Virus record (IMG/VR): IMGVR_UViG_3300027808_000037
Coordinates: 1 to 54,109 of that record
Strand: one strand, 5' to 3'
Source: a virus
Taxonomy: Duplodnaviria > Caudoviricetes
DNA length: 54,109 bases
Each line of letters begins with the position of its first letter. Position 1 is the first letter of the stretch. Below are positions 52 to 42,042 of the stretch, one piece after another. A program made the position numbers and the translations under genes. Below the pieces are notes generated by a model. That model was given only the letters and a program-made list of their open reading frames with translations. It ran no database searches and was not told the origin of the DNA.

Positions 52-127
52 GCGACTTTAGCTCATCGGTTAGAGCAGGGTACTCATAATGCCTTGGCGG
101 TTGGTTCAACTCCAACAAGTCGCACCA
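52..127 (+). tRNA. tRNA CAT (Met or Ile2)
   Basis: Cloverleaf, anticodon loop CT-CAT-AA, encoded CCA. Confidence 0.9.
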
Positions 128-136
128 AAATTTAAT

Positions 137-210
137 ATCTCTCTGATGTAATGGCAGCATGTCGGTCTCCAAAACCGTTCGTGGGGGTTCGAGTCCCTCG
201 GGGGATGCCA
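137..210 (+). tRNA. tRNA-Trp(CCA)
   Basis: Loop CT-CCA-AA, T-arm GGTTCGAGTCC, CCA end; U11-A24 pair and U27.U43 mismatch. Confidence 0.92.
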
Positions 211-218
211 GTCAATAA

Positions 219-310
219 GGAAGCGTGGCAGAGCCCGGTTTATTGCAACAGTCTTGAAAACTGTCGGACTTTAAAAGGTCCCGTGAGTTCGAATCTCACC
301 GCTTCCGCCA
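219..310 (+). tRNA. tRNA-Ser(TGA)
   Basis: Long variable arm, loop CT-TGA-AA, GCCA end. Confidence 0.93.
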
Positions 311-317
311 AGTTTAT

Positions 318-394
318 GCACCGGTACCAGAGCGACTAATGGCGCGGATTGCAAATCCGTTGATTCGTGGGTTTGAGTCCCACCCGGTGTTCCA
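318..394 (+). tRNA. tRNA-Cys(GCA)
   Basis: Loop TT-GCA-AA, TCCA end. Confidence 0.9.
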
Positions 395-396
395 GT

Positions 397-531
397 TTTG
401 TTTATGTGTGTACGGTTACCCTTATGTGATACGTGAGCCAACCAAGCCGCTTATGTATGTACTCGAAGCCCGTAGCAAGCGTAGTCGATACGTTCAGCGC
501 ATGCCTTGGACAGTGTGTGACGATAAACAAA
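397..531 (+). ncRNA. Candidate structured ncRNA A in the tRNA array
   Basis: Closing helix TTTGTTTAT/ATAAACAAA, internal CCAAG/CTTGG pairing; no credible ORF. Confidence 0.5.
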
Positions 532-539
532 TTCAATAT

Positions 540-629
540 AGTGAGTTGACAGAGTTCGGCTAAATGTACCTCCCTGCTAAGGAGTGTGTCGGAAACGGCA
601 CGTGGGTTCGAATCCCACACTCACTGCCA
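540..629 (+). tRNA. tRNA-Ser(GCT)
   Basis: Long variable arm, loop CT-GCT-AA, GCCA end. Confidence 0.9.
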
Positions 630-653
630 ATTTTTATTTTAGACTTATTAGGT

Positions 654-726
654 GTGACCTTAGTGTAGCGGCAGCACCCCAGATTGTGATTCTGTTAGTA
701 CGGGTTCGACCCCCGTAGGTCACCCC
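654..726 (+). tRNA. tRNA-His(GTG)
   Basis: Loop TT-GTG-AT, T-arm GGTTCGACCCC; no encoded CCA; flanked by a 10-bp inverted repeat. Confidence 0.88.
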
Positions 727-738
727 TAATAAGTTTTT

Positions 739-814
739 GTTCCTTTAGCTGATGTGGTCATAGCAGCGGTCTGAAAAGCCGATGAAGCAGGTTCGATCCC
801 TGCAGGGAGCACCA
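739..814 (+). tRNA. tRNA-Phe(GAA)
   Basis: Loop CT-GAA-AA, ACCA end. Confidence 0.92.
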
Positions 815-821
815 AGTATAT

Positions 822-895
822 TCCTCTGTAGTTAAATGGTATAACAGTCGACCGATAATCGACTATCACAAGTTCGATTCTTGTTGGAGGAACCA
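822..895 (+). tRNA. tRNA-Ile(GAT)
   Basis: Loop CC-GAT-AA (C instead of the usual U33), ACCA end. Confidence 0.88.
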
Positions 896-898
896 AGT

Positions 899-1117
899 TT
901 TGTTAAAGTGTCAGCAAGAGAAAGTCACGCTATAAAGGTTTCTTCGAAGGACTGATATAGTAGAAGGTAATGGGTTCAACTCCCAACCACTCGCAAGGGT
1001 GGTGTCTGTAACGGAGACTACGCTGGACCGGTATCCCAAGTGACGTACCGAGTCCCGCTCGAGCTTGTTAATTCGGGTGAATGGTGCTTATAATTATGGT
1101 AGCACTACTTTAACAAA
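899..1117 (+). ncRNA. Candidate ~220-nt multi-helix ncRNA B
   Basis: 11-bp closing helix TTTGTTAAAGT/ACTTTAACAAA, AGCAAG/CTTGTT and GTCAC/GTGAC helices, a GCAA tetraloop hairpin and a T-loop-like GGGTTCAACTCCC. Confidence 0.65.
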
Positions 1118-1125
1118 TTCAATCA

Positions 1126-1200
1126 GCGTCTGTAGTATAATGGAGAATACACTGGTCTACGAAGCCGGGGATTGTGGTTCGATTCCATACAGACGCACCA
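1126..1200 (+). tRNA. tRNA-Arg(ACG)
   Basis: Loop CT-ACG-AA, ACCA end. Confidence 0.92.
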
Positions 1201-1208
1201 ATTTTTAT

Positions 1209-1284
1209 CACTGTGTTAAGCGGGGCTGTATACACCCTTGCCAATAGTCGGGAATGTCAACATCGGCGTTGACCACAGTGGCCA
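1209..1284 (+). ncRNA. tRNA-like RNA with acceptor stem and CCA but non-canonical arms
   Basis: CACTGTG/CACAGTG stem followed by G-CCA, 76 nt; GTCAAC/GTTGAC hairpin in the T-arm position without a TTC loop. Confidence 0.6.
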
Positions 1285-1291
1285 ATTTTAT

Positions 1292-1367
1292 CTCGCATTC
1301 GGTTAGTGGCTATACCACTCCGTTTGGGGCGGAGACATCGTAGGTTCGAGTCCTACATGCGAGACCA
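1292..1367 (+). tRNA. tRNA-Pro(TGG)
   Basis: Loop TT-TGG-GG, ACCA end. Confidence 0.9.
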
Positions 1368-1376
1368 ATTTTTTAT

Positions 1377-1450
1377 GCCTTGGTAGTTTAATGGTAGAAC
1401 TGCGGTGTTACATACCGCTGACGGGAGTTCGATTCTCCAACAAGGTACCA
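1377..1450 (+). tRNA. tRNA-Val(TAC)
   Basis: Loop GT-TAC-AT, ACCA end. Confidence 0.87.
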
Positions 1451-1457
1451 CTTTAAT

Positions 1458-1535
1458 CTGTGTGTAATGTCAATCTGGTAGACGGCCTTGTTTGGAACGA
1501 GGAGGCTGTAGGTTCAAATCCTACCATGCAGACCA
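1458..1535 (+). tRNA. tRNA-Pro(TGG), second divergent copy
   Basis: Loop TT-TGG-AA, ACCA end. Confidence 0.88.
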
Positions 1536-1543
1536 ATTTTTGT

Positions 1544-1617
1544 TCGGGTGTTATGTAATGGTAGCATATCAGACTTTGACTCTGAGAGTGTAGGTTCGAT
1601 CCCTACCACCCGTACCA
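1544..1617 (+). tRNA. tRNA-Gln(TTG)
   Basis: Loop CT-TTG-AC, ACCA end. Confidence 0.9.
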
Positions 1618-1618
1618 G

Positions 1619-2431
1619 TTAAGATTTAAACTTAATTAATTTTTCGTGCAATAATTTTGCAGCAAGTATATTTGAGTCAATTCCGGGGTGCCGACAATCT
1701 CTGGCAAGATCTCGAATTGGTAATAACATCATGGGAAAATTTGGATATTTTAGATTTTGCTCATCCCACATTTTATTAAAATGTGTAGCATGTATCACAG
1801 GGATATCAGTATACAGTGAGTTAGTTATCATTCTATTAAACATTGCAGAAATTGCTCCTGACTTAGATTTACCAAATATCTCGTCGAGTACTTCTATAGA
1901 AACGTCATTTGAAAATCCAAAGTTATTCCAAGGTCCGTTGAATTGTATATTATAATTTTTGTCTACAGAAAATGGTCTATTAGAATCGGCCCAGAGATGA
2001 ATTACTGCCCGGGGCCTAATATTATTATTTTTTAATATCATCATATTGTAAAGACTAATTTGTTGGCAACTGGCCACCACACCCAGATTAACTACATTGC
2101 AACCTGTAAGTTCTTTAAGTCTGGAAGAGATCGTATCAGCATCATCAACACCAACACCAAAGGCGTTACTGCACCCAAACATTACAATAGAATTAGACCA
2201 ATCTATGTTTTCAAAAGGCTCGCAACGATAATACTGTCCATTGAGCGTGTATTGAATAGATTTGGTTCTGTAAATCCAAGTGTCGTGCAGCCTAGCAAGA
2301 TTAATTTTGAAATTTGATTCAGAATCTGCTGCCACAAAGGGCGAATCCATTGGGTGAAAATTATCAACATACACTTGTGACGAGCTTGTGTCAAAATTGA
2401 TAAGTTGTCTTTGTAATGTGTCAGAGTGCAT
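1619..2431 (-). CDS. SGNH/GDSL-hydrolase-like protein inserted antisense in the tRNA array
   Basis: FGCSNAFG block, NLG block, C-terminal DxxHPG. Confidence 0.6.
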   Translation of the reverse strand: MHSDTLQRQLINFDTSSSQVYVDNFHPMDSPFVAADSESNFKINLARLHDTWIYRTKSIQYTLNGQYYRCEPFENIDWSNSIVMFGCSNAFGVGVDDADTISSRLKELTGCNVVNLGVVASCQQISLYNMMILKNNNIRPRAVIHLWADSNRPFSVDKNYNIQFNGPWNNFGFSNDVSIEVLDEIFGKSKSGAISAMFNRMITNSLYTDIPVIHATHFNKMWDEQNLKYPNFPMMLLPIRDLARDCRHPGIDSNILAAKLLHEKLIKFKS

Positions 2432-2445
2432 ACCCTATTTATTAT

Positions 2446-2537
2446 GCCAGCGAGACTTGGAAGTCAGAGAGGTCTTATATACCTTTTAGCGCCAGATTAG
2501 CGTTCTTGAGAGAGTTCGATCCTCTCCGCTGGTACCA
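2446..2537 (+). tRNA. Atypical tRNA with TAT anticodon (Ile by anticodon) and a long variable arm
   Basis: 7-bp acceptor stem, 4-nt D-loop, extended anticodon stem, loop CT-TAT-AT, V-arm AGCGC/GCGTT, ACCA end. Confidence 0.75.
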
Positions 2538-2541
2538 TTAT

Positions 2542-2619
2542 GCCCCGATAGCCCAATTGGTATGAGGCGTCTCTCTCAAAAGGAGAATCGTGTCGGTTCG
2601 AGTCCGACTCGGGGTACCA
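2542..2619 (+). tRNA. tRNA-Leu(CAA) with a short variable loop
   Basis: Loop CT-CAA-AA, 5-nt variable region, ACCA end. Confidence 0.8.
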
Positions 2620-2658
2620 TTGAATTTATAGTACTAACGTATTAGCGTACTAAAGTAT

Positions 2659-2666
2659 TATAAATA
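2659..2666 (+). promoter_or_regulatory. T4-type late promoter TATAAATA
   Basis: Exact T4 late consensus 4 nt before the ATG at 2671. Confidence 0.6.
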
Positions 2667-2670
2667 TACG

Positions 2671-3312
2671 ATGTATAAAATCATCGAAAATAACAGTCCG
2701 TACTACATAAAGTTCAAAATGCCAAATGCAATTGAGATTGCTAATGTATGTAGAGCCAGGTGTGATCGTGTTTTTAAAAGATTCTTTGTGTCTGAACCGT
2801 TGCAACGCATTGAAGTGGAAAGTATAATTGAATTATTTCCAAGTTTTAATCAATTGCAGTTATTAGATTCCCGCGTAAATATCTTTGTTAGTGAGCCGGG
2901 ACTATACTCGCCACCACATAAAGATGGCGCAGATATGCAATTTGGTATCAATATACCAATTGAAATTGCCGACGACGAATGTATTACAAATTGGTATTCA
3001 GATGAAAGTTTAAGCAATTATGAATACTATGCTGGAGTGGATAATTTATTAGGTATGAAACGATATGTTCGCCAGATACAAAATTATCAGGTTGACGCAT
3101 GCTCGCCAATCGCTTCAACTACAATGAAACCAGATGAATGTATGCTGTTCAATGTAAATTGCTTTCATGATTGGGACAATCGACGGTCTACTAACCGTCG
3201 AATTATACTAACTCTCCGACCGACACCGGGCATTGGAAACTTGTCGTTTAACGATGTCGCTCAGATATTGTTTGGAAAATCAAACAAATTAGATTCGACG
3301 GCCGTCACGTGA
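2671..3312 (+). CDS. 2OG-Fe(II) oxygenase-like (DSBH) protein
   Basis: PHKD ... FHDW ... RRIILTLR (HxD...H...R pattern). Confidence 0.6.
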   Translation: MYKIIENNSPYYIKFKMPNAIEIANVCRARCDRVFKRFFVSEPLQRIEVESIIELFPSFNQLQLLDSRVNIFVSEPGLYSPPHKDGADMQFGINIPIEIADDECITNWYSDESLSNYEYYAGVDNLLGMKRYVRQIQNYQVDACSPIASTTMKPDECMLFNVNCFHDWDNRRSTNRRIILTLRPTPGIGNLSFNDVAQILFGKSNKLDSTAVT

Positions 3313-3630
3313 TCGTTGTTGCGCAATCATAACACGTTTTGGAACTACACTAGCGATTTCTTCGTAGTCGTCCATATCAATAGCATCTTGATCGGCACCT
3401 ACTTCGATAATCTTCTCTACAACAAAATGTAGAATATCATCACTTACAACATCTTCTCGAATCATTTCTAATACACGAATAAGTGTTGGAATGTTAAATG
3501 ATACGCATGGCTGTGTTGATTCGGTGGCATCGTCATCTGTTTCAACTTCAACTTCGTTGTTGGTAGTGTCAGACTGATAAAGTCCATTGCGACCTCTGAC
3601 CATTGACTGACGTGATTTGTAATATGACAT
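3289..3630 (-). CDS. Hypothetical protein
   Basis: AGGAGA RBS before the ATG at 3630; acidic ORF. Confidence 0.7.
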   Translation of the reverse strand: MSYYKSRQSMVRGRNGLYQSDTTNNEVEVETDDDATESTQPCVSFNIPTLIRVLEMIREDVVSDDILHFVVEKIIEVGADQDAIDMDDYEEIASVVPKRVMIAQQRSRDGRRI

Positions 3631-3730
3631 AATGTGTCTCCTTGTATTATTAGACACACTTACTTAAAATGAAACTTTAGATATCGGCTACGGCTTTTGC
3701 AGTAGCATCAACTTCATGTTGACAACATGG

Positions 3731-3759
3731 TTGACAACAGTCAAGAATGGCTGTATAAT
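3731..3759 (+). promoter_or_regulatory. Sigma70-type promoter for the second tRNA block
   Basis: TTGACA-N17-TATAAT. Confidence 0.85.
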
Positions 3760-3786
3760 TAGAACTTAAACAAAAGAGGTAATGAC

Positions 3787-3810
3787 ATGAAACGTACAGG
3801 TAAACTGTAG
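3787..3810 (+). CDS. Putative 7-aa leader peptide MKRTGKL ending in TAG
   Basis: GAGGT RBS; the TAG overlaps the base of hairpin 3810-3845. Confidence 0.5.
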   Translation: MKRTGKL

Positions 3811-3871
3811 TGTCCCTTAGATCCCCGTATGGTCTAAGGTGGCACGTAAAAGACAAAGTCAATACGAACAC

Positions 3872-3946
3872 CCATGCTAAACTTTAGTGGTGAAGTACCC
3901 GGCTCTTAACCGGAATAACCGAGTTCGATTCTCGGAGCATGGACCA
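3872..3946 (+). tRNA. tRNA-Lys(CTT)
   Basis: Loop CT-CTT-AA, ACCA end. Confidence 0.9.
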
Positions 3947-3948
3947 TA

Positions 3949-4023
3949 CGGGGTATAATTCAATGGTTAGAATAGCCGGCTTTTAACCGGTCTATCACGG
4001 TTCGAGTCCGTGTGCCCCGACCA
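3949..4023 (+). tRNA. tRNA-Lys(TTT)
   Basis: Loop CT-TTT-AA, ACCA end. Confidence 0.92.
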
Positions 4024-4105
4024 TATCTAAACACATTACCCACTGATAGCGGCGTACCCGTGAGTCTTTGGGAGTCTTGCAAGCTAGTGTGTTTAGATAT
4101 GGTCG
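4018..4105 (+). ncRNA. Candidate ncRNA C, an 18-bp perfect helix enclosing a ~50-nt domain
   Basis: CGACCATATCTAAACACA / TGTGTTTAGATATGGTCG. Confidence 0.55.
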
Positions 4106-4151
4106 ATGCTATCTGCAGATAGCATTCATAATCGGAAGTAATTACTCCGAT

Positions 4152-4229
4152 GAACTCGTAGTCTTCTAATGGTAGGAAAGGCCCGTTATGGGGCTTAATG
4201 CAGGTTCGAATCCTGCCTACAATGAGTTT
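4152..4229 (+). ncRNA. tRNA-like RNA with an 8-nt anticodon loop and bulged acceptor stem
   Basis: Canonical D arm and T arm (GCAGG-TTCGAAT-CCTGC); loop CGTTATGG; no CCA. Confidence 0.6.
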
Positions 4230-4360
4230 GCATATTGAAGTATATTCATCATTGGTAGTAGACTTCGATCAACTTGGTTAATAGTTGAGTCTCATTATGA
4301 AGCAGCCTAACCAGCGCGATGAAAAGACCCTTTACGTCGAGAGTATATTTCAATATGTAA
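4228..4360 (+). ncRNA. Candidate ncRNA D with a pseudoknot
   Basis: 20-bp closing helix with three G.U pairs; loop TGGTTA of the TCAACT/AGTTGA hairpin is complementary to TAACCA at 4308-4313. Confidence 0.65.
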
Positions 4361-4431
4361 TAGCTTGCAAGGTCGCTCCTTGCCGCAAACGGCAGCGTCA
4401 GTCGTGACATCCCGGGAGAGACCGGGGCCAT

Positions 4432-4506
4432 GGTAACGTAGCATTAAGGCAATGCGCCACCTTCATACGGTGTCAAAAGTGAGTTCGATTCTCACCGTTA
4501 CCACCA
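4432..4506 (+). tRNA. tRNA-Met(CAT)
   Basis: Loop TT-CAT-AC, ACCA end. Confidence 0.9.
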
Positions 4507-4514
4507 GTTTTTAT

Positions 4515-4590
4515 TCCATCTTAGTATTCTCGGTGAGTGCCCCTGGCTGTTAACCAGGTGAGGTTGGTTCGAATCCAACAGATGGAGCCA
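4515..4590 (+). tRNA. tRNA-Asn(GTT)
   Basis: Loop CT-GTT-AA, GCCA end. Confidence 0.92.
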
Positions 4591-4596
4591 GTATTT

Positions 4597-4671
4597 CGGT
4601 CCTTGGTGAAATGGATATCATCTCTGTCTTCGAAACAGAGGGTAGAGGTTCGATTCCTCTAGGACCGGCCA
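4597..4671 (+). tRNA. tRNA-Arg(TCG)
   Basis: Loop CT-TCG-AA, GCCA end. Confidence 0.9.
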
Positions 4672-4677
4672 AGTTAT

Positions 4678-4772
4678 GGGAAGTAATGCAGGGGTGTTGG
4701 TACCCCGACCAGCCTTGAAAACTGGGTCCTGGTGATGAGCCGGGTGGGGTTCGACTCCTCTGCTTCCCGCCA
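4678..4772 (+). tRNA. Atypical 8/4-fold tRNA-Ser(TGA) with a Sec-like D arm
   Basis: 8-bp acceptor GGGAAGTA/TGCTTCCC, 4-bp T stem, 6-bp D stem with 4-nt loop, long V arm, GCCA end. Confidence 0.8.
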
Positions 4773-4777
4773 AGTTT

Positions 4778-4858
4778 TGTGTGTTTCGTATAAATGTTAG
4801 GGCGCCATTACATGAGGCTAATGACCTCCGGATACAGGTTCGAATCCTGTAACACACA
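4778..4858 (+). ncRNA. Degenerate tRNA-like element
   Basis: TGTGTGTT/AACACACA acceptor stem and perfect T arm ACAGG-TTCGAAT-CCTGT; D and anticodon arms not canonical; no CCA. Confidence 0.5.
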
Positions 4859-5367: not shown

Positions 5368-5441
5368 AGTATATTCTCCTAACAATATTTAGAATAAAAT
5401 ATACAACAGCGCATTGTACTTTAGTACTAATCTTAAATTGG

Positions 5442-5470
5442 TTGACACCCATTCGAAATAGTGTTACAAT
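5442..5470 (+). promoter_or_regulatory. Sigma70-type promoter
   Basis: TTGACA-N17-TACAAT. Confidence 0.75.
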
Positions 5471-5491
5471 AGCATAAACAGGAGAACCAAT

Positions 5492-5959
5492 ATGCCATGG
5501 ATTGAAAACGTAGCAGCCGCAGACATCCCAACCCGCTTTCATCACGAAGCTGGCCCAAACAGTATGCTAATCAGTATTGTTGATCCAGCCAGCTGGAGGC
5601 CAGAAGCGGCCCATGAATTCAAAGAGCGCCATAACTTTGAGTTCCTAGACATTGAAAAGAACGACTTTGCGCTAGACGAAGCAATGCGTTGCAGCCAAGA
5701 ACAAGCAGACGAACTGGTCCGCCTGTTGCAACATGCATTGGCGAACAAAATGAATGTTGTCGTTCATTGCTTTGCAGGCATTTGCCGTTCAGGTGCAGTG
5801 TGTGAAGTTGGTGTAATGATGGGATTTGAAGACACAGGTCGATTCCGTAGCCCTAACTTGTTGGTTAAGCATCGCATGATGAAGGCCCTGGGCTGGACTT
5901 ATGATGAAAACGAAAAGCCCAATATTGATGACTGGCGCACCTTTAAAAGTGTTGACTAA
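5492..5959 (+). CDS. Cys-based (tyrosine/dual-specificity) phosphatase family protein
   Basis: HCFAGICRS = HCx5R P-loop; AGGAG RBS. Confidence 0.85.
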   Translation: MPWIENVAAADIPTRFHHEAGPNSMLISIVDPASWRPEAAHEFKERHNFEFLDIEKNDFALDEAMRCSQEQADELVRLLQHALANKMNVVVHCFAGICRSGAVCEVGVMMGFEDTGRFRSPNLLVKHRMMKALGWTYDENEKPNIDDWRTFKSVD

Positions 5960-5960
5960 G

Positions 5961-6016
5961 TGTTGTAAAAATACAACAATAAAACGGTTGCTCAACTTGG
6001 AATTTTGTGTTATACT
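5961..6016 (+). promoter_or_regulatory. Early promoter with palindromic box
   Basis: TGTTGTA-AAAA-TACAACA, then AAAACGG-TTGCTC-N17-TATACT. Confidence 0.7.
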
Positions 6017-6044
6017 ACATGTATTAAACAACGAAAGGCATTAT

Positions 6045-6218
6045 ATGGCTGGCAAAGCAAAATCAATTTATTTGACAATCACAGTAAAAGGACAGTTCAA
6101 AACTGTTTTTAGCAGAGTCTTTTTTGATGCTAAGGCATATAACGAATATGTTAAGTCAGACGAGTTTAAAGCCCAATGGCCCGTTGAAGAATTTGATGTT
6201 ATCAAGGAAGTATATTAA
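6045..6218 (+). CDS. Small hypothetical protein
   Basis: AAAGG RBS; ORF directly downstream of a promoter. Confidence 0.7.
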   Translation: MAGKAKSIYLTITVKGQFKTVFSRVFFDAKAYNEYVKSDEFKAQWPVEEFDVIKEVY

Positions 6219-6225
6219 GGAATAA

Positions 6226-6453
6226 ATGTATAAGGTAATAGGAAAAGAAGAACTATTTCGAGTTCTTACTCTTGCAGAAGCAATGAATGTTGCCAAGAGT
6301 ATGAATGAATTCGTTACTATCAAAGGACCCGACTTTGAAGTATGCGGAATGTTTGGAGTAGATAGCATTAAGGACGGATTATGCCCCGACGGTGTTAAAT
6401 ACGATTGGAACAAGGCCAGTAGAATTGGTCGTGTTAAAAAGGAGCGAGTATGA
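6226..6453 (+). CDS. Hypothetical protein
   Basis: AAGGA RBS; its TGA stop overlaps the next ATG (ATGA). Confidence 0.75.
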   Translation: MYKVIGKEELFRVLTLAEAMNVAKSMNEFVTIKGPDFEVCGMFGVDSIKDGLCPDGVKYDWNKASRIGRVKKERV

Positions 6454-7118
6454 AACGTGTAATTGAAGTCCGTGCCGCAGAAGGTGGCGAAGACAGTAAA
6501 CTATTTGCAAAAGATCTTGCACAAGCCTACATTAAATTTGCCCACAGCAAAGGCTGAGCTACCCGCCTAATAGGTGAGTATCTTGGTGAACTTCATATTG
6601 AAGTAAAGGGTACTGATTTATCAGGCTTGTATAATGAAAGCGGTGGACACAGAATACAACGTGTTCCGCCAACAGAGCGTAAAGGTAGAGTTCATACCAG
6701 CACCGTAACAGTTGCTATTACAGACCCAACTGAAGTTGCCATAAAGGTTGCAGACAGTGATTTACGTATCGAATGGTATAGTGGTACTGGAGCTGGCGGC
6801 CAGCACCGAAACAAGCACCAAAACAGTTGCCGTATTACTCACATACCCTCTGGCACAGTTGCAACAGCACAATGTCGCAGTCGTCAAAATAGCCTTGATC
6901 AAGCCATGGGTACTATTCACAAAACGGTTGACAAACAGGTTCAAAACCAGTATAATAACGGCATAGCAAGTGATAGAAAGCAACAAGTTGGATCGGGTAT
7001 GCGAGGAGACAAAATCCGTACATACCGTTTCCAAGATGATGTTGTTAAGGATCACGTAACAAATAAATCAAACAGCGTTAAACGAGTGCTAAGTGGCAAT
7101 TTTGACCTGCTGTGGTAA
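6450..7118 (+). CDS. prfA: RF1-like class I peptide chain release factor lacking domain 1, with an in-frame UGA at codon 36 (6555-6557)
   Basis: EVRAAEGGEDSKLFA, ESGGHRIQRVPPTE (PxT motif), GAGGQ and IRTY motifs all in one frame; AAGGAG RBS. Confidence 0.85.
6928..6956 (+). promoter_or_regulatory. Sigma70-type promoter internal to the release factor gene
   Basis: AAAACGG-TTGACA-N17-TATAAT, same form as the other early promoters. Confidence 0.8.
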
Positions 7119-7130
7119 TAAGGAATTGAA

Positions 7131-7679
7131 ATGAAAACATGGATCACAAGCGACTTGCACTTTGGGCACAAGAACATTATGAGCTTCTGCCCCGAGACGC
7201 GAGCACGTTTTAATAACGATGTTGCTTACATGAACAACGCAATGGCAGAGGAATGGAACGCCAAAGTGCAACCAGAAGACACAGTTTACATCTTGGGTGA
7301 TGTGGCGTTCATGTCGGGCAGTGTTGCTGGTAGAACAATTGCCCGTTTGAATGGCACCAAGATTTTGATCGAAGGCAATCACGATCGCAAGACATTACAG
7401 GATGCAACATTCCGTAGAGCTTTTGCAGAGGTACACAAGTATTTGGACATCACATATGACGGCCACAAGTGCGTTATGTTTCATTATCCAATTGCCGAGT
7501 GGGATCAAATGCATCGTGGAGCATTGCACTTTCATGGTCACTTGCACGGAGGTGTAAGCGGCTTGGAAAAGTACCGTGCATTGGACGTGGGTATGGACTC
7601 AACCGGTGAAATTGTAGTTTCTATGGAACGTGCAATTAATTTGATCAAGGACAACGAAATTAAAGGTCATCATGTTTAA
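7131..7679 (+). CDS. Calcineurin-like metallophosphoesterase
   Basis: SDLH, LGD, GNHD, HYP and HGHLH motifs. Confidence 0.9.
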   Translation: MKTWITSDLHFGHKNIMSFCPETRARFNNDVAYMNNAMAEEWNAKVQPEDTVYILGDVAFMSGSVAGRTIARLNGTKILIEGNHDRKTLQDATFRRAFAEVHKYLDITYDGHKCVMFHYPIAEWDQMHRGALHFHGHLHGGVSGLEKYRALDVGMDSTGEIVVSMERAINLIKDNEIKGHHV

Positions 7680-8577
7680 GGACAAGTTGAAAGAGTATGT
7701 AGAATCGTCTAAGCTGGTTGGCATGCGCGAAGCCGGTGAAGGCATCTATGTACTCAAATATAAGAAGCGTGTGTTTTACGACAACCTGTGGAACGAATAT
7801 ATTGCTGAATGTCGTGGAAGTATTGTGGATGCAGATTTCAACCTAGTTGCTTATCCATTCACAAAAATCTACAACTATGGCATTGAAAATGAAGCACCTG
7901 TATTGGCAGACGATACTGAAGTTACCGCGTTCCGTAAAATCAACGGCTTTATGGTTGCAATGACTTGGTACAACGGCGATATCCTGGTGTCTACTACAGG
8001 TTCAACTGACAGCCCATACGTTGCTATGGCAAAGGAAATGATGTTGACTCATCAAAGCTGGGCCGACTGGCAGTTGGCATTCAATCGCGCAGACATGGAC
8101 GGGATGACGTTTATGTTTGAATGTGTACATCCCAACGATCCACATATTGTGCCTGAAAAGCCAGGTATGTATATCTTGGGTTATCGTGAAAACACTTGGT
8201 GTAGCCGTGTAGGTCATGATCCTGCTGTACTACAAGATTTAGCAAATGCATTTAACTGCTATGAGACAGAAAGCTATACCACTAATATGGTTCGCTTGAA
8301 AGAAATGGCAAAGGAATGTAAGCATGAAGGTTTTGTATTCTATACTGAAGATGGTGTAAGTGCTAAAATCAAGAGTCCATACTACTTGACTTCAAAGTGG
8401 GTTGCTCGTAATCCACGTACAGACAAGTTGGTGAACATGCAAGCAGACATCAAGCATCAACTAGACGAAGAATACTACCCTCTAGTGGATGCTATTCGTG
8501 CTAACATTGTCGAGTACACTGCTATGGACGAGCAAGCTCGTTTAGCTTGGGTGCGCAACTACATGGAGACAGTATGA
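7672..8577 (+). CDS. T4 Rnl1-type RNA ligase
   Basis: ECRG, PFTKIYN, KINGFM (motif I), EGFV (motif IV), KIKS (motif V). Confidence 0.85.
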   Translation: MFKDKLKEYVESSKLVGMREAGEGIYVLKYKKRVFYDNLWNEYIAECRGSIVDADFNLVAYPFTKIYNYGIENEAPVLADDTEVTAFRKINGFMVAMTWYNGDILVSTTGSTDSPYVAMAKEMMLTHQSWADWQLAFNRADMDGMTFMFECVHPNDPHIVPEKPGMYILGYRENTWCSRVGHDPAVLQDLANAFNCYETESYTTNMVRLKEMAKECKHEGFVFYTEDGVSAKIKSPYYLTSKWVARNPRTDKLVNMQADIKHQLDEEYYPLVDAIRANIVEYTAMDEQARLAWVRNYMETV

Positions 8578-8735
8578 AAGAAGAAAAGTTTCAAAAGATA
8601 GTAGAAGAGATTAGTGAGTTTCTTGGAGACCATATGCAGAAGAATCCTCACTACTTGTTCGACGAGGACATTATCAAAATCTTTTCTCACTATAAAAAGA
8701 AGCACATTAAACGAGCATTAGAGGAAATACGATGA
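8574..8735 (+). CDS. Small hypothetical protein
   Basis: ATGA overlaps at both ends. Confidence 0.6.
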   Translation: MKEEKFQKIVEEISEFLGDHMQKNPHYLFDEDIIKIFSHYKKKHIKRALEEIR

Positions 8736-9040
8736 AACAACTTACTTGCCCACATTGTGCAGACACTTATCCAGATTTTGATGTTGCTCACGTCTGTAGT
8801 AAAGGTCAGTATGCCCCCAAACTCAACCCTAAAATGAATGATGAAAGTCACCTACCTGTAGCAGAACAAAGTCTGGTGTTCCGTTTGCGTAAACGAGCAG
8901 AGATCCGTAGGCAAATCAGTTCACGTAAAAGTGTAGAAGAAGGTAAACCAGACCGTATTGCTGACTTGTTAGAAGAAGCCGCTGCCGAAATTGATCGGCT
9001 TAATTTGTCCGTTAAAGATGTTTCAGTTGACAGCAAGTGA
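8732..9040 (+). CDS. Hypothetical protein with an N-terminal CxxC
   Basis: GAGG RBS, translationally coupled. Confidence 0.65.
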   Translation: MKQLTCPHCADTYPDFDVAHVCSKGQYAPKLNPKMNDESHLPVAEQSLVFRLRKRAEIRRQISSRKSVEEGKPDRIADLLEEAAAEIDRLNLSVKDVSVDSK

Positions 9041-9055
9041 TAACTATGTTATAAT
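9027..9055 (+). promoter_or_regulatory. Sigma70-type promoter
   Basis: TTGACA-N17-TATAAT upstream of tRNA-Ser. Confidence 0.8.
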
Positions 9056-9075: not shown

Positions 9076-9167
9076 GGAACGGTGGCTGAGTGGCCGAAGG
9101 CAGCAGGTTGCTAACCTGTCGAGTGTTTTATTATGCTCCGTGAGTTCGAATCTCACCCGTTCCGCCA
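9076..9167 (+). tRNA. tRNA-Ser(GCT), second copy
   Basis: Loop TT-GCT-AA, long V arm, GCCA end. Confidence 0.93.
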
Positions 9168-9193
9168 AGTTAATTAACCAAAGAAAGAAAAGT

Positions 9194-9355
9194 ATGAAGC
9201 CAGGTAAGACATTTAAGTTGAGTAAGCAGACAAAGCGTTTGATGTGCAGCATTGTAGATGCCAAAGAACGTAATGCATTTAAAAGTGCAATGATCCAAGC
9301 AGAGTTGGCTGCTGGTGTAGTTATTAAACGCGAGCCACGTGAAGCTCGTAAGTAA
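9194..9355 (+). CDS. Small basic hypothetical protein between two tRNAs
   Basis: 53-aa ORF MKPGKTFKLSKQ... Confidence 0.6.
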   Translation: MKPGKTFKLSKQTKRLMCSIVDAKERNAFKSAMIQAELAAGVVIKREPREARK

Positions 9356-9367
9356 TCGCCAAATTCT

Positions 9368-9442
9368 CTGGCGTTAGTATAATGGATAATACAGCAAGCT
9401 TCTACCTTGCGAATGTGGGTTCGATTCCTGCACGCCGGACCA
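9368..9442 (+). tRNA. tRNA-Arg(TCT)
   Basis: Loop CT-TCT-AC, ACCA end. Confidence 0.92.
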
Positions 9443-27290: not shown

Positions 27291-28307
27291 ATGAAAAAAT
27301 ACGATACACTGGTTTTGATTGGCCGCTTTCAGCCATTCCACAATGCTCACCTTGAGATTGTAAAACGTGCGACCGCATTGTGCGATAAGTTGGTTATTGT
27401 AGTTGGTAGTTCGCGCCAACCACGCACTTACAAGAACCCGTTTACATTTGAAGAACGCCGTGCAATGATTCGATCTGCTACAGCAGGCTTGAGTCTGCAG
27501 ATTATGATCGAATCCAACACAGATACCATTTACAACGACCAGGCCTGGGCAGTCCGTGTTCAGCAAATTGTTGCCCAACACACAGTAGCAGGCGATCGCG
27601 TAGGCATCATTGGTCACAAGAAAGATGATTCAAGTTTCTACCTTGATATGTTCCCGCAGTGGGGTTACGAAGATGTTGAACTGGTTGAGTTCTTGAGCGC
27701 AGTTGATGTGCGTGACTTGTATTTCAAATACACATTCAACAGCAACTTTATCAAGAACGTTGTACCAGACAGCACTTACGATTCACTCATGGAGTTTCGC
27801 AAAACAGAAGACTTTGCACAAATTGTTCGTGAACGCGAGTTCATTGCCGAACACAATAAGCAGTATGCCGGACTCAAGTATCCTCCGATCTTTAGCACAG
27901 CAGACGCAGTTGTTATCTGTTCAGGCCATGTGCTAATGATCAAACGCAGAGCCGAGCCAGGTAAAGGTTTGTGGGCACTGCCTGGCGGTTATGTAAACGC
28001 CCGCACTGACAAGAGTGTAGAAGATGCGGCTATACGTGAGCTACGCGAAGAAACACAAATCAAAGTGCCTGCTCCTGTGTTGCGGGGCAGTATTAAACGC
28101 AGTAAGGTATTTGATGCAATTGATCGTAGCCCCCGTGGACGAATTATTACTCATGCTTTCCATATTGAATTGCCCGACGGCGAACTGCCAAAGGTAAAGG
28201 GAAGTGATGACGCAGAAAAGGCACGGTGGGTGCCTATTGCAGAAGTTCTTAGTGAACAATGCTTTGAAGACCACTACGAAATCCTACAGCATTTTGTAGG
28301 TGCCTAA
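27291..28307 (+). CDS. nadM: Bifunctional NMN adenylyltransferase / ADP-ribose pyrophosphatase (NadM-Nudix)
   Basis: GRFQPFHNAH (HxxH) and Nudix box PGG...AAIRELREET. Confidence 0.93.
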   Translation: MKKYDTLVLIGRFQPFHNAHLEIVKRATALCDKLVIVVGSSRQPRTYKNPFTFEERRAMIRSATAGLSLQIMIESNTDTIYNDQAWAVRVQQIVAQHTVAGDRVGIIGHKKDDSSFYLDMFPQWGYEDVELVEFLSAVDVRDLYFKYTFNSNFIKNVVPDSTYDSLMEFRKTEDFAQIVREREFIAEHNKQYAGLKYPPIFSTADAVVICSGHVLMIKRRAEPGKGLWALPGGYVNARTDKSVEDAAIRELREETQIKVPAPVLRGSIKRSKVFDAIDRSPRGRIITHAFHIELPDGELPKVKGSDDAEKARWVPIAEVLSEQCFEDHYEILQHFVGA

Positions 28308-28349
28308 GCGATAGACGCAAAGGTTAATTTACTTTAAAGGAACTTTAAA

Positions 28350-29747
28350 ATGAAACTCGCAAAAAACTTAATCTTAAACACTGACAGCTACAAAGTCAGC
28401 ATGTTCAAACAATACCCAGCAGGAACTACAGGTGTATACAGTTACATTGAATCCCGGGGTGGGCGTTACGATAGAACAGTGGTCTTTGGACTCCAGGCTT
28501 TTATCAAAGAATACTTACTTGAACCCATTACCCAAGCAGACATTGATATCGCAGATGAAATCCTTACCGCCCACGGTGAGCCATTTAACCGAGCAGGATG
28601 GCAATACATTCTTGACCAGCACGATGGATACCTCCCAGTTGTTATTAGGGCAGTCCCTGAAGGAACGGTTGTGCCTGTTAAAAATGTCTTGGCCACCATT
28701 GAAAACACAGACCCAGAATGCTTCTGGTTGACTACTTGGTTGGAAACTGCTTTGCTTCGTGCAGTGTGGTACGGTACTACTGTGGCAACACAAAGTTACA
28801 CAATTAAACAAGTTATTCTTGACTACTTGGAGCGCACTGGTGACCCTACTACTATTGATTTTAAGTTACACGACTTTGGTGCTCGTGGTGTTAGTAGCAT
28901 GGAGAGTGCTGGTATCGGCGGTGCCGCCCACCTTGTCAACTTTATGGGGACAGACACTATTTCGGGTGTGTTGTTTGCTCGTGAGTATTACAATGCTGGC
29001 ATTGCTGGTTTTTCAATTCCTGCAATGGAACATAGTACCGTAACAAGCTGGGGTCGTGAAGGAGAAGTAGATGCTTATAGAAACATGCTCAATCAGTTTG
29101 CAAAGCCTGGCGCTGTTCTGGCTGTCGTATCTGATAGTTACGACATCTACAATGCCGCAGAAAAACTCTGGGGTGAAGAACTTCGTCAACAAGTCATTGA
29201 TTCTGGGGCTACCGTTGTTATTCGTCCTGACAGTGGTGATCCTGTGGAAGTAAACCGCAAGTTGATCGAAATTCTTGGATCAAAGTTTGGATATACAAAA
29301 AACGCAAAAGGCTTTAAGGTACTCAACAATGTACGTCTTATTCAAGGTGATGGCATCAACGAACTTACTGTTCGCAGTATCCTTGGAGCGTTCATGGCCA
29401 TGGGATGGAGTGCTGACAACATTGCTTTTGGTATGGGCGGCGCACTGCTTCAAATTGTGGACCGCGACACACAACGATTCGCAATGAAGTGCAGTGCCAT
29501 GCAAATGAACGGTGAGTGGGTTGATGTTGTCAAAGACCCTGTCACTGACCCAGGTAAGAAGTCTAAAGCAGGTCGTGTGACTCTTTGGAAGAGTGGCGGC
29601 GAGTACGTGAGTGCAGTTGCTTGTCCAACTGGATGGCACGACAAGGCTATTGGTGACTTTGTTGACGTACTTGAAGAAGTTTACCGTGATGGTAAGTTGA
29701 TCAAGGAAATTGACTTTGCTACAGTTCGGGCAAACGCTCGCAAATAA
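28350..29747 (+). CDS. nadV: Nicotinamide phosphoribosyltransferase
   Basis: TDSYK, LHDFGARG, EHS, VSDSYD, IRPDSGDP, IQGDG, FGMGG. Confidence 0.95.
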   Translation: MKLAKNLILNTDSYKVSMFKQYPAGTTGVYSYIESRGGRYDRTVVFGLQAFIKEYLLEPITQADIDIADEILTAHGEPFNRAGWQYILDQHDGYLPVVIRAVPEGTVVPVKNVLATIENTDPECFWLTTWLETALLRAVWYGTTVATQSYTIKQVILDYLERTGDPTTIDFKLHDFGARGVSSMESAGIGGAAHLVNFMGTDTISGVLFAREYYNAGIAGFSIPAMEHSTVTSWGREGEVDAYRNMLNQFAKPGAVLAVVSDSYDIYNAAEKLWGEELRQQVIDSGATVVIRPDSGDPVEVNRKLIEILGSKFGYTKNAKGFKVLNNVRLIQGDGINELTVRSILGAFMAMGWSADNIAFGMGGALLQIVDRDTQRFAMKCSAMQMNGEWVDVVKDPVTDPGKKSKAGRVTLWKSGGEYVSAVACPTGWHDKAIGDFVDVLEEVYRDGKLIKEIDFATVRANARK

Positions 29748-40582: not shown

Positions 40583-40641
40583 GTCGTATTTAACTTTAAT
40601 TTTTGGTAGTGTTGCTATTTTCAGCTTTGCTAAGTAGCAGT

Positions 40642-42042
40642 ATGGACTATAACAACTTACCTAAATCATTTTGTATCCTCCCGTGGATACATTCTGCAAT
40701 TAATCCTGACGGCACTGTCAGACAGTGCTGTGTTTCACAACCATGGAGTGCAACAGTTGGAAGTCTGAGCAATAACACATTGGAAGAAATTTTCAATGAT
40801 GCACCATTAAGAGAACTTAGAAAGCAACTACTCACAGGCGAACGTTTACCTGAATCTTGTTTAAGTTGCAGGTTGCGTGAAGACGCAGATACAAAAGTCT
40901 TCTCTTACAGACAAGGAACAAACGCAAAATATCGTGATGTAATTGAGACTCTTCAACCAGACCCTGACGGGTATGCTGAATTCCAACAGTTATACATTGA
41001 TTATAGATTTTCTAATAAGTGCAATTTTAAGTGTGTCAGCTGTGGACCTTCACTGAGTAGCTCTATCGGGCAGGAAAGAATCAAAGTAGAACAGCTTAAA
41101 AACCCACACGTTGATCCAGCTCGCATCAAGCAATCAATGCCGCCAGCATTCATTGAAGTTGACACACAAAAGTTTTATAAAGAATTTTTAAAGTTTAGCA
41201 CTACAATTAGAGAAATTTATTTTGCTGGTGGCGAACCATTGATTAACGACCACCACTACGAGTTACTTGAGCATTTCATTGAGACACAGCAACCTGTTAG
41301 TATTTTCTATAACACTAACTTCTCTGAATTAAATTACAAAGGTAAAAATGTAATTGAAATGTGGCGTAAGATCAATGGGCCAGTCAATATCTATGCCAGC
41401 ATTGACGGGTACGGTGAAACTGGGGAAACAATCAGAGATGGCTTTAGTACAGCAGTGTTTGAGGAAAATGTTAAAAAATATATCTCAGCAAAACTTACCA
41501 AGGTGCTTCCGGCAGTTACTGTCAACAAACAACACCAAATTGGATTCTGTATAACATTTGGTTTAACAAATTACGATAAAGTTATTGACACTGCAAGATG
41601 GTTATTGACAATGGTACATGCTTCAATGGACGCCAATGGAATAATGCCAACCAAACCGTCAGCTGAATTGGATAACCTTTATTATCCAGCAATTAACTTT
41701 AATCCCATCATCGAACCAGCCCCAATGAGTGTTACATTCCTCAATGAGGAACAACGTGCGCAAGTGGTAAACAAGATAGAACAACAGCTACTAGAGCTCC
41801 GCAATGATAGTCAATTTGGTGCCGTGTTTGGGCATGATAGGCTACTACAGGAGATACATGACAATTTCTTAGGGTATATTAAACGAGTTGAACTTCGCCC
41901 AACTATTAACTATCAAATATTGTCTAGTACGATTGAAATATTAGATAGCGCAGAAGAATTACGTGAATCAAATTGGCGTAAAACCCTAGCACCAATGTAC
42001 AAAATTTGGTCAGACGCATTAAACAACGAAGGTAAACAATGA
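40642..42042 (+). CDS. Radical SAM protein with an N-terminal SPASM/twitch-like domain
   Basis: FCILPW...QCC...CLSC, CNFKCVSC, AGGEP. Confidence 0.9.
   Translation: MDYNNLPKSFCILPWIHSAINPDGTVRQCCVSQPWSATVGSLSNNTLEEIFNDAPLRELRKQLLTGERLPESCLSCRLREDADTKVFSYRQGTNAKYRDVIETLQPDPDGYAEFQQLYIDYRFSNKCNFKCVSCGPSLSSSIGQERIKVEQLKNPHVDPARIKQSMPPAFIEVDTQKFYKEFLKFSTTIREIYFAGGEPLINDHHYELLEHFIETQQPVSIFYNTNFSELNYKGKNVIEMWRKINGPVNIYASIDGYGETGETIRDGFSTAVFEENVKKYISAKLTKVLPAVTVNKQHQIGFCITFGLTNYDKVIDTARWLLTMVHASMDANGIMPTKPSAELDNLYYPAINFNPIIEPAPMSVTFLNEEQRAQVVNKIEQQLLELRNDSQFGAVFGHDRLLQEIHDNFLGYIKRVELRPTINYQILSSTIEILDSAEELRESNWRKTLAPMYKIWSDALNNEGKQ

Follow-up and report, generated by a model that had tools for sequence, protein, structure and literature searches.

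A conserved in-frame UGA codon in the gene for a minimal RF1-type release factor of freshwater jumbo phages, a putative readthrough gate

Feedback control through recoding is classically illustrated by release-factor genes, with prfB as the example. In Escherichia coli, the prfB gene carries an in-frame UGA at codon 26 (PMC5009743). According to those sections of the same 2016 article that deal with release-factor genes, an in-frame UGA passed in the zero frame had once been proposed for RF2 genes but had not been found, a counterpart of UGA gating was unknown for RF1, and only the release factor of giant amoeba viruses made use of readthrough together with frameshifting (PMC5009743). Furthermore, the word "phage" does not occur in a survey on the evolution of release factors (PMC6514570), and our full-text search of the literature found no account of a UGA-gated phage gene of the RF1 type. 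Here we describe such a gene in IMG/VR record IMGVR_UViG_3300027808_000037, a 54,109-bp stretch of tailed-phage (Caudoviricetes) DNA that was analyzed over its entire length and is referred to below as the window. The gene encodes a class-I release factor of the RF1 type that lacks domain 1 (hereafter RF), and its reading frame is interrupted at codon 36 by a TGA for which we propose a function as a gate passed by zero-frame readthrough. This recoding gate of a phage release factor is well supported and, apparently, unpublished.

The gene, the interrupting codon and the structure predicted behind it are located in the window as follows:

6450..7118, plus strand: RF1-type class-I release-factor gene without domain 1, 222 codons, with TGA at codon 36 (profile matches, alignment and structural model)
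6555..6557, plus strand: conserved in-frame TGA, RF codon 36, a putative readthrough gate (80/80 relatives, motif scan, alignment with a Trp of RF1)
6560..6631, plus strand: predicted extended hairpin whose main stem pairs 6565-6584 with 6607-6626 and starts 7 nucleotides (nt) past the TGA (folding and pairing counts)

CheckV estimates that the record represents 16% of its genome. Since its relatives, two of which carry terminal repeats, reach lengths of up to 235-364 kb, the window is a piece of a jumbo phage genome. Most of the metagenomes that contain nearly identical DNA come from freshwater and lakes, and one of these runs may be the source of the record. A near-identity DNA search with positions 5400-8800 against cultured phages gave zero matches, while tblastn searches of cultured phages with the RF protein retrieved 74 records, all with at most 41% identity. 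Relatives of RF were collected through a protein-guided scan of IMG/VR that found 264 of them, the best 80 of which (65-97% identity) were fetched. The statistics on nonsynonymous and synonymous divergence (pN and pS), on the base following the TGA (+4) and on the gate itself are derived from 77 distinct RF sequences.

The RF gene is preceded by a strong Shine-Dalgarno (SD) sequence (AAGGAG) and closed by a tandem TAA TAA (window positions 7116-7121). Its product matches the Pfam profiles PF03462 (PCRF; 83.7 bits) and PF00472 (RF-1 domain; 70.3 bits). Because the PCRF profile is covered only at positions 103-194 of 194, and because the alignment with RF1 starts at residue 112 of the E. coli protein (residues 112-340; residues 87-314 of the Thermotoga maritima RF1), domain 1 is absent. 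An AlphaFold (AF2) model computed from a 30-row alignment reached a predicted local distance difference test (pLDDT) score of 93.7 and could be superimposed on ribosome-bound RF1 with a template-modelling (TM) score of 0.92 when normalized to the query and of 0.57-0.58 when normalized to the full-length chain. The initial annotation of this locus, made from the sequence without database searches, had described a release factor of 222 codons that begins directly at domain 2; the loss of domain 1 stands, but the frame is not open, as it contains the TGA at codon 36, which that annotation does not mention and which we regard as the key feature of this locus. Exactly one gene with a release-factor domain is present in each of the five long relatives.

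Codon 36 is TGA in the window and in 80/80 of the fetched relatives, that is in 81/81 sequences. In a paired scan of all of IMG/VR with a 21-nt motif centred on this region, the TGA version of the motif was recovered from 70 stretches and the TGG version from 0. The TGA aligns with a Trp residue of both the E. coli and the T. maritima RF1. Codons 1-35 are under the strongest purifying selection of the entire gene (pS 0.69, pN 0.158, dN/dS about 0.09), and the pN value of codons 37-60 (0.21) is close to that of the remaining gene (0.20). As codons 37-60 precede any possible in-frame start and display a pN typical of the gene, both sides of the TGA are translated in frame. A metatranscriptome contig of 403 nt spans positions 6306-6708 with 0 differences from the window, and in a second RNA library, stemming from another study, the contig of a relative crosses the gate with no change listed at 6555-6557. 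Hence, the RNA, if it is truly RNA, carries an unedited UGA.

An isolated in-frame stop would normally be taken as the sign of a pseudogene; gene decay and assembly error are both excluded by the 81/81 conservation, the dN/dS of about 0.09 upstream of the codon and the 70 versus 0 outcome of the motif scan, so that, judged by sequence, the conserved TGA is not damage. Two further ways of dealing with such a codon were considered along with decay and error. The hairpin predicted behind the UGA resembles a bacterial selenocysteine insertion sequence (SECIS), and the take-off site of the ribosomal bypass in T4 gene 60 has a Gly codon in front of the stop, as found at the RF gate. However, ARAGORN called no selenocysteine tRNA (tRNA-Sec) in the three complete relatives, and the site corresponds to Trp in RF1; bypassing is contradicted by take-off codons (GGC, GGT, GGA or AGC) that mismatch the next conserved Gly codon within individual sequences such as those of loci L016 and L050, and by the fact that the supposed gap is homologous coding sequence. 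We therefore give hardly any credence to a broken gene, an assembly error, selenocysteine insertion or gene-60-type bypassing as explanations of the TGA.

The list of open reading frames (ORFs) of the window contains RF only as a frame of 163 amino acids (aa) starting from a TTG at position 6627, and the database annotation of the contig (P0044) has the same length. Database entries of RF measure 222-237 aa on contigs shorter than 6 kb and 163-186 aa mostly on longer contigs; it looks as if gene callers switch to a TGA=Trp translation table on short contigs and shorten RF elsewhere. Since the gene is systematically shortened or mis-coded in this way, the family is hidden in annotations. The best 150 representatives include about 21 calls of 145-187 aa that start past the position of the gate, which suggests that they are further gated members. 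The same short calls, together with the 163-aa annotation of the window, could also be taken to mean that two products are made, with translation ending at the TGA and beginning anew downstream to give a shorter factor (e.g., in the 163-aa TTG frame), or through assembly of a split protein with the 35-aa peptide. We regard this as very unlikely: in the window, the frame contains no ATG, GTG or TTG from the TGA to codon 61, and codons 37-60, whose protein-level conservation is typical of the gene, are homologous to strands of RF1. Moreover, it is codons 1-35 that are most strongly selected; their product presumably forms the helix that contacts the stop codon with its tip, and a protein started downstream would lose this helix.

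Next to the protein-level selection, a nucleotide-level signal is present 3' of the TGA. Synonymous divergence in codons 37-60 (pS 0.45) is below that of the other parts of the gene (0.69-0.77), and synonymous diversity in a sliding window of seven codons falls to its gene-wide minimum of 0.18 at codon 39 (mean 0.49), with a lesser dip at codons 55-60. In a profile of the minimum free energy (MFE) along the first 400 nt, computed at a coarse step for every second sequence (38/77), the 72-nt segment directly past the TGA had the lowest mean MFE (-25.2 versus -12.7 to -20.4 in the others). In the window, the hairpin at 6560-6631 folds with an MFE of -31.3 kcal/mol (z -3.0). Scored over 69 distinct flanks, its main stem is paired in 87.9% of the cells, compared with 30-50% for slid controls, a comparison that favours the tested structure because it was taken from the window's own fold; 11/18 pairs of the main stem show changes on both sides. 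The base at +4 is U in 0/77 gates, compared with 7/16 of the true TGA stops of the window and 29/85 of those of G002, a complete relative. In the part of the source that concerns this position, +4U is described as lowering readthrough (PMC5289835). The marks of programmed readthrough are consequently present at this locus: a conserved stop codon, selection at the protein level on either side of it, and constraint at the nucleotide level on its 3' side.

TGA is an ordinary stop codon of this phage. Among the 47 ORFs of at least 150 aa in the window, 16 end with TGA, 31 with TAA and 0 with TAG; the 301 long ORFs of G002 include 85 that end with TGA and 25 that end with TAG. The 75-aa gene just upstream of RF likewise stops at a TGA, which lies within an ATGA overlap with the RF start. 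For these reasons, genetic code 4 was rejected for the phage as a whole. The coverage by long ORFs under alternative codes was non-discriminating, since dropping any stop codon inflates the number of spurious ORFs. A suppressor tRNA devoted to this codon, or a switch to TGA=Trp late in infection as proposed for RF1-carrying phages with recoded TGA, might still decode the TGA of the RF gene. The TGA-recoded Jade phages carry RF1 in their code-change module (bioRxiv 10.1101/2021.08.26.457843), relatives of our phage have a tRNA(CUA), indicating that suppressor tRNAs occur in the clade, and the window covers only a small part of its genome. Against this explanation stand the absence of a tRNA(UCA) from the ARAGORN calls of 3/3 complete relatives, the closure of about a third of the long ORFs by TGA, the finding, by eye, of no other convincing gene split by a single TGA in the window, and the RF1 gene of the Jade phages, which is itself in the standard code (bioRxiv 10.1101/2021.08.26.457843). 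We hence consider a suppressor tRNA or a code switch to be improbable.

The candidate reader that we favor is a tRNA encoded by the phage itself:

137..210, plus strand: tRNA-Trp (CCA) of the phage, a candidate for near-cognate decoding of RF codon 36, with U-A as the D-stem pair 11:24 (ARAGORN, sequence inspection)

Genes for tRNA-Trp(CCA) are present in the three complete relatives (2, 1 and 1 copies), and all three inspected sequences of tRNA-Trp have U-A at positions 11:24 of the D-stem. We take U-A at this position to be the state created in E. coli tRNA-Trp by the classical UGA-suppressor mutation of Hirsh, and we treat it as a lead and not as a test. Most likely, the gate is read by tRNA-Trp, which would insert the residue present at this site in RF1. 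Two candidates for an opal suppressor were rejected: a tRNA at 4779-4858 reported only by Rfam has the anticodon AAU when its alignment is read by eye, and a sub-threshold tRNA-Sec-like match at 4700-4769 (26.8 versus 47 bits) has the anticodon UGA and not UCA.

Several other features of the tRNA complement were recorded. The Rfam-only tRNA at 4779-4858 (45.5 bits) has a 13-nt insertion in the D-loop, and a tRNA-Ile(aat) is also present in G002; the class-II-like tRNA remnant or gene at 4700-4769 lies upstream of it. A well-formed, amber-suppressor-like tRNA with a CUA anticodon, labeled "Pyl" by ARAGORN, occurs in four relatives (G002, G003, L105 and L106); the copies in G002 (174391-174465, minus strand) and G003 (363408-363482, plus strand) are 82% identical to each other. 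The window also contains, at 2446-2537, a tRNA-like gene of 92 nt whose variable arm is long and whose anticodon is UAU, called Ile by ARAGORN and not reported by Rfam at the gathering score (fold z -3.0); codon 41 of RF is ATA in 67/67 cases in which it specifies Ile. Permuted, two-piece genes for transfer-messenger RNA (tmRNA), encoding ANDS/E..A-type tags, were found in G002 (179583-179981), G003 (361980-362523) and G005 (149874-150283), and a tRNA called by ARAGORN with a four-base anticodon (tttc) in an 8-nt anticodon loop is present in G003 (227532-227606, minus strand).

What kind of factor lies behind the gate? The NCBIfam scores of RF are 199 bits for prfA, 118 for prfB and 39 for prfH, and in a search of the PDB, RF1 (E value 1e-41) was followed by RF2 (1e-26) and, via the GGQ domain only, by PrfH (8e-4). 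On the two full-length prfA models the scores of 199 and 198 bits remain below the cut-offs of 400 and 423. In structures of RF1 on the ribosome, the stop codon is read by a PxT tripeptide, a Gln residue and an HTS..T motif. RF has kept these elements: a PPT that aligns with the PVT/PAT of RF1, the Gln preceding it and HTS..T; the GGQ motif is invariant in the family alignment. The codon-reading residues are also conserved in the wider family of domain-1-less factors (36-49% identity). Position 36 in this wider family is often Leu, Ile or Ala, and the TGA gate is therefore confined to a subclade. By sequence, RF is RF1-derived. Under the tripeptide rule, PPT is expected to read UAA and UAG, and truncation studies indicate that loss of domain 1 should abolish the coupling to RF3 but not codon-dependent release; UAA/UAG specificity is what we infer for RF on this basis. 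Alternatively, PPT, conserved as it is across the family, may mark an altered codon range, e.g., UAA only, by which a conflict with the tRNA(CUA) of the relatives would be avoided.

Collectively, these data lead us to consider it probable that programmed zero-frame readthrough of a UGA gates the synthesis of a minimal, codon-reading RF1-type factor consisting of domains 2-4. In the mechanism that we envision, the strong SD sequence would load ribosomes onto the RF gene, and at codon 36 host RF2 would compete with near-cognate tRNA-Trp supplied by the phage itself. This competition would be tipped toward tRNA-Trp by the hairpin and by the weak context of the stop codon, in which +4 is never U. 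As RF2 alone reads UGA, passage through the gate would rise when RF2 is limiting or saturated, or when tRNA-Trp is abundant. The full-length factor would then supplement termination at UAA, which makes up two thirds of the phage stops, and at UAG; the additional RF1-type factor could thereby free RF2 from its work at UAA and close an indirect feedback loop. The supply of RF would in this way be tied to the RF2 capacity of the host, the logic of prfB feedback transposed into trans. That the gate acts as such a cross-factor sensor, with RF made only when host RF2 lags at the UGA and Trp inserted by the phage tRNA-Trp under stimulation from the hairpin, is a plausible extension that we put forward tentatively.

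A number of points weigh against this proposal. It is the anatomy of the locus that we observed, while decoding of the UGA, the regulation of this step and what the factor does are deduced from it. An RF1-type factor cannot, by the usual rules, read UGA, so that any feedback must be indirect. The counts of the 80/80 type do not represent independent events, the sequences being related to each other, and contigs from RNA libraries can contain DNA. RNAalifold returned no consensus structure over all 70 flanks, the most diverged subgroup seems, by eye, to pair in a different register, and the pairing count started from the fold of the window. As the record represents an estimated 16% of the genome, a suppressor tRNA could sit elsewhere in the phage. 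Finally, RF is found amid kinase, metallophosphoesterase and phosphatase genes in many relatives, so that it may have some functional connection with RNA repair.

This last point concerns the genes that surround RF in the window:

5442..5470, plus strand: sigma-70-like promoter (11/12 positions, TG extension) ahead of the phosphatase gene (consensus match)
5492..5959, plus strand: Cys-based dual-specificity-type phosphatase, 155 aa, HCX5R motif (PF22785, Tc-R-P, 31.3 bits versus a cut-off of 27; DSPc 29.3 bits)
6045..6218, plus strand: small ORF, 57 aa, no family, present in 10/80 loci (ORF list, profile searches)
6226..6453, plus strand: small ORF o75, 75 aa, no family, TGA stop overlapping the RF start in ATGA (ORF list, profile searches)
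6928..6956, plus strand: sigma-70 promoter within the RF coding region, 12/12 consensus (TTGACA, 17 nt, TATAAT), facing the metallophosphoesterase and ligase genes
7131..7679, plus strand: calcineurin-type metallophosphoesterase (MPE), 182 aa (Metallophos 26.6 bits; phrog_547, E value 3.5e-52)
7672..8577, plus strand: Rnl1-type RNA ligase, adenylyltransferase domain, 301 aa (PF09511, RNA_lig_T4_1, 55.4 bits; phrog_562, E value 6.4e-52)
8574..9040, plus strand: pair of small ORFs (53 and 102 aa), the latter of which accompanies the ligase in relatives (ORF list, relatives)

The gene content described in the initial annotation is borne out: a Cys-phosphatase lies upstream of RF, an MPE and then an Rnl1-type ligase, both with Pfam and PHROG matches, follow it, and the block sits between tRNA genes (52-4671 and 9076-9442), ARAGORN having called 22 tRNA genes in the window. 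From this arrangement it had been concluded that RF is a PrfH-like rescue factor for ribosomes stalled by damage, partnered with the phosphatases and the ligase in a rescue-heal-seal system. Several observations speak in favor of such a partnership. Domain 1 is missing from PrfH as well, as stated in the relevant portion of PMC6514570; RF adjoins the MPE and ligase genes, in a tRNA region, in the window and in its closest relatives; within 6 kb of RF, the 80 loci contain the phosphatase 73 times, o75 65 times, the MPE 51 times, the ligase 25 times and an AAA_33 kinase 24 times, in counts taken over loci with variable gene order, common insertions and many contigs that end early; and in locus L048 the order is phosphatase-kinase-RF-o75-MPE. 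However, the prfH model (TIGR03072) is matched with 39 bits versus a cut-off of 166.65, over residues 98-194 only, the GGQ domain, and the E value of 8e-4 for PrfH in the PDB contrasts with that of 1e-41 for RF1. In addition, the RF1 codon-reading residues are conserved throughout the domain-1-less family, and RtcB (PF01139) was found in 0/5 records (the window and 4 relatives).

The gene neighborhood in the long relatives also argues against a rescue partnership. There, a P-loop kinase (AAA_33; PF13671, E value 1e-19) is located between or beside the MPE and the ligase (5/5), and the MPE-kinase-ligase triad is kept within a few kb in 5/5 genomes, while RF is 64-72 kb away from it in 4/5 and 2-6 kb in one. 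The linkage of RF and ligase, for which a neighborhood survey had been suggested as a check, is therefore not conserved, whereas the phosphatase stays near RF (391 nt in G002). As the 80 loci represent one phage lineage, their shared neighborhood is largely inherited synteny. Moreover, the promoter inside the RF gene faces the MPE and the ligase and probably provides them with a transcript of their own; both of its hexamers are intact in 43/81 sequences and the -10 hexamer in 64/81, and a second dip in synonymous diversity, at codons 158-172 of RF, coincides with it. Another 12/12 sigma-70 promoter (TTGACA, 17 nt, TATAAT) is present at 9027-9055, where the 102-aa ORF ends, and points toward tRNA-Ser. 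We thus find a PrfH-like role of RF unlikely, while the MPE and ligase do look like a healing and sealing pair. The MPE, the kinase and the ligase are probably an ordinary RNA heal-and-seal set for tRNA that is separate from RF, and the two adjoin in the window by synteny inside an island of translation-related genes. A looser theme that they may share is the upkeep of the translation apparatus under attack by the host.

In the window and its closest relatives, the MPE gene directly overlaps that of the ligase and the kinase was not found, the 54-kb window covering 16% of a genome. A search of four partial closer relatives (13-42% complete) did not reveal the kinase either, which says nothing about its absence from them. 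The ligase aligns with T4 Rnl1 (PDB search, E value 5e-8) over residues 35-261 of 374, with the motif I Lys in register, and scores 38.7 bits on the T4 RnlA equivalog model TIGR02308, below the cut-off of 242.25. The small ORF o75 is found in 65/80 loci, mostly directly upstream of RF; as a substitute for domain 1 it was rejected, since it has no family match and lies 33 kb away from RF in the complete relative G002. Elsewhere, the window encodes a head protease, a DNA ligase, an NAD-salvage pair at 27291-29747 (a nicotinamide mononucleotide (NMN) adenylyltransferase/Nudix-type protein and a nicotinamide phosphoribosyltransferase; phrog_395 and phrog_448), two radical-SAM genes at 40603-43619, and a carbamoyltransferase at 46761-48224.

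The UGA gate in the RF gene is fixed across a large and abundant clade of freshwater jumbo phages. If our proposal is true, no earlier case is known in which programmed zero-frame readthrough controls a release factor of the bacterial type, although the arrangement had been hypothesized decades ago, when release-factor genes had yet to be sequenced, and phages may then tune the termination capacity of their hosts in addition to the supply of tRNAs. The locus would constitute a compact natural UGA-readthrough cassette, composed of codon context and hairpin, that is directly testable. At the same time, the attractive reading of this gene cluster as a PrfH-like repair system is corrected as unsupported.

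How does this locus compare with the systems already described? PrfH and RtcB2 reportedly form a system for the rescue and repair of ribosomes. The phage locus resembles it in that a release-factor homologue without the N-terminal domain is encoded near an RNA ligase; it differs in that RF scores far under the threshold for PrfH and retains the codon-reading motifs of RF1, in that its neighbor is an Rnl1-type ligase and not RtcB, and in that the linkage is not conserved. T4 Pnkp and Rnl1 repair tRNA, and bacterial Pnkp unites a kinase, a metallophosphoesterase and a ligase. The MPE, the Rnl1-type ligase and the AAA_33 kinase of the relatives correspond to the three activities by which breaks with 2',3'-cyclic-phosphate and 5'-OH ends are healed and sealed. 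Unlike in T4 Pnkp, the phage genes are separate and small and the phosphoesterase is of the calcineurin type and not of the haloacid dehalogenase (HAD) type; unlike T4 Rnl1, the phage ligase lacks most of the C-terminal domain.

Closer to the gate itself are two viral cases. The release factor of Mimivirus (R726) and Megavirus is, as presented in the pertinent part of PMC3521657, likewise a class-I factor of a virus whose internal stops are passed by recoding that includes readthrough. There, however, the factor is of the eukaryotic/archaeal eRF1 type, belongs to an amoeba virus and depends on frameshifting plus readthrough (PMC3521657), while the phage factor is of the bacterial RF1 type, has no domain 1 and would need readthrough of one UGA. 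In the Jade phages, a phage RF1 is also connected with the meaning of TGA, but these phages recode TGA genome-wide in their late genes and possess a TGA suppressor tRNA and a tryptophanyl-tRNA synthetase (TrpRS; bioRxiv 10.1101/2021.08.26.457843). The present phage, in contrast, uses TGA as a stop and has it in frame in the RF gene only.

The closest parallel is prfB. In both cases, the gene for a class-I release factor contains a conserved in-frame UGA near its start (codon 36 in the phage), and because of this early UGA the expression of the phage gene would, like that of prfB, depend on the efficiency of UGA termination. The devices differ in several respects: the frame of the phage gene continues in the zero frame and not in +1; the gate has no CUU slippery codon but is preceded by GGN or AGC; the bases upstream of it vary and contain no conserved SD-like element; and its stimulator is apparently a 3' hairpin. 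The phage factor is of the RF1 type, so that the codon gating its synthesis is read by another factor, the RF2 of the host.

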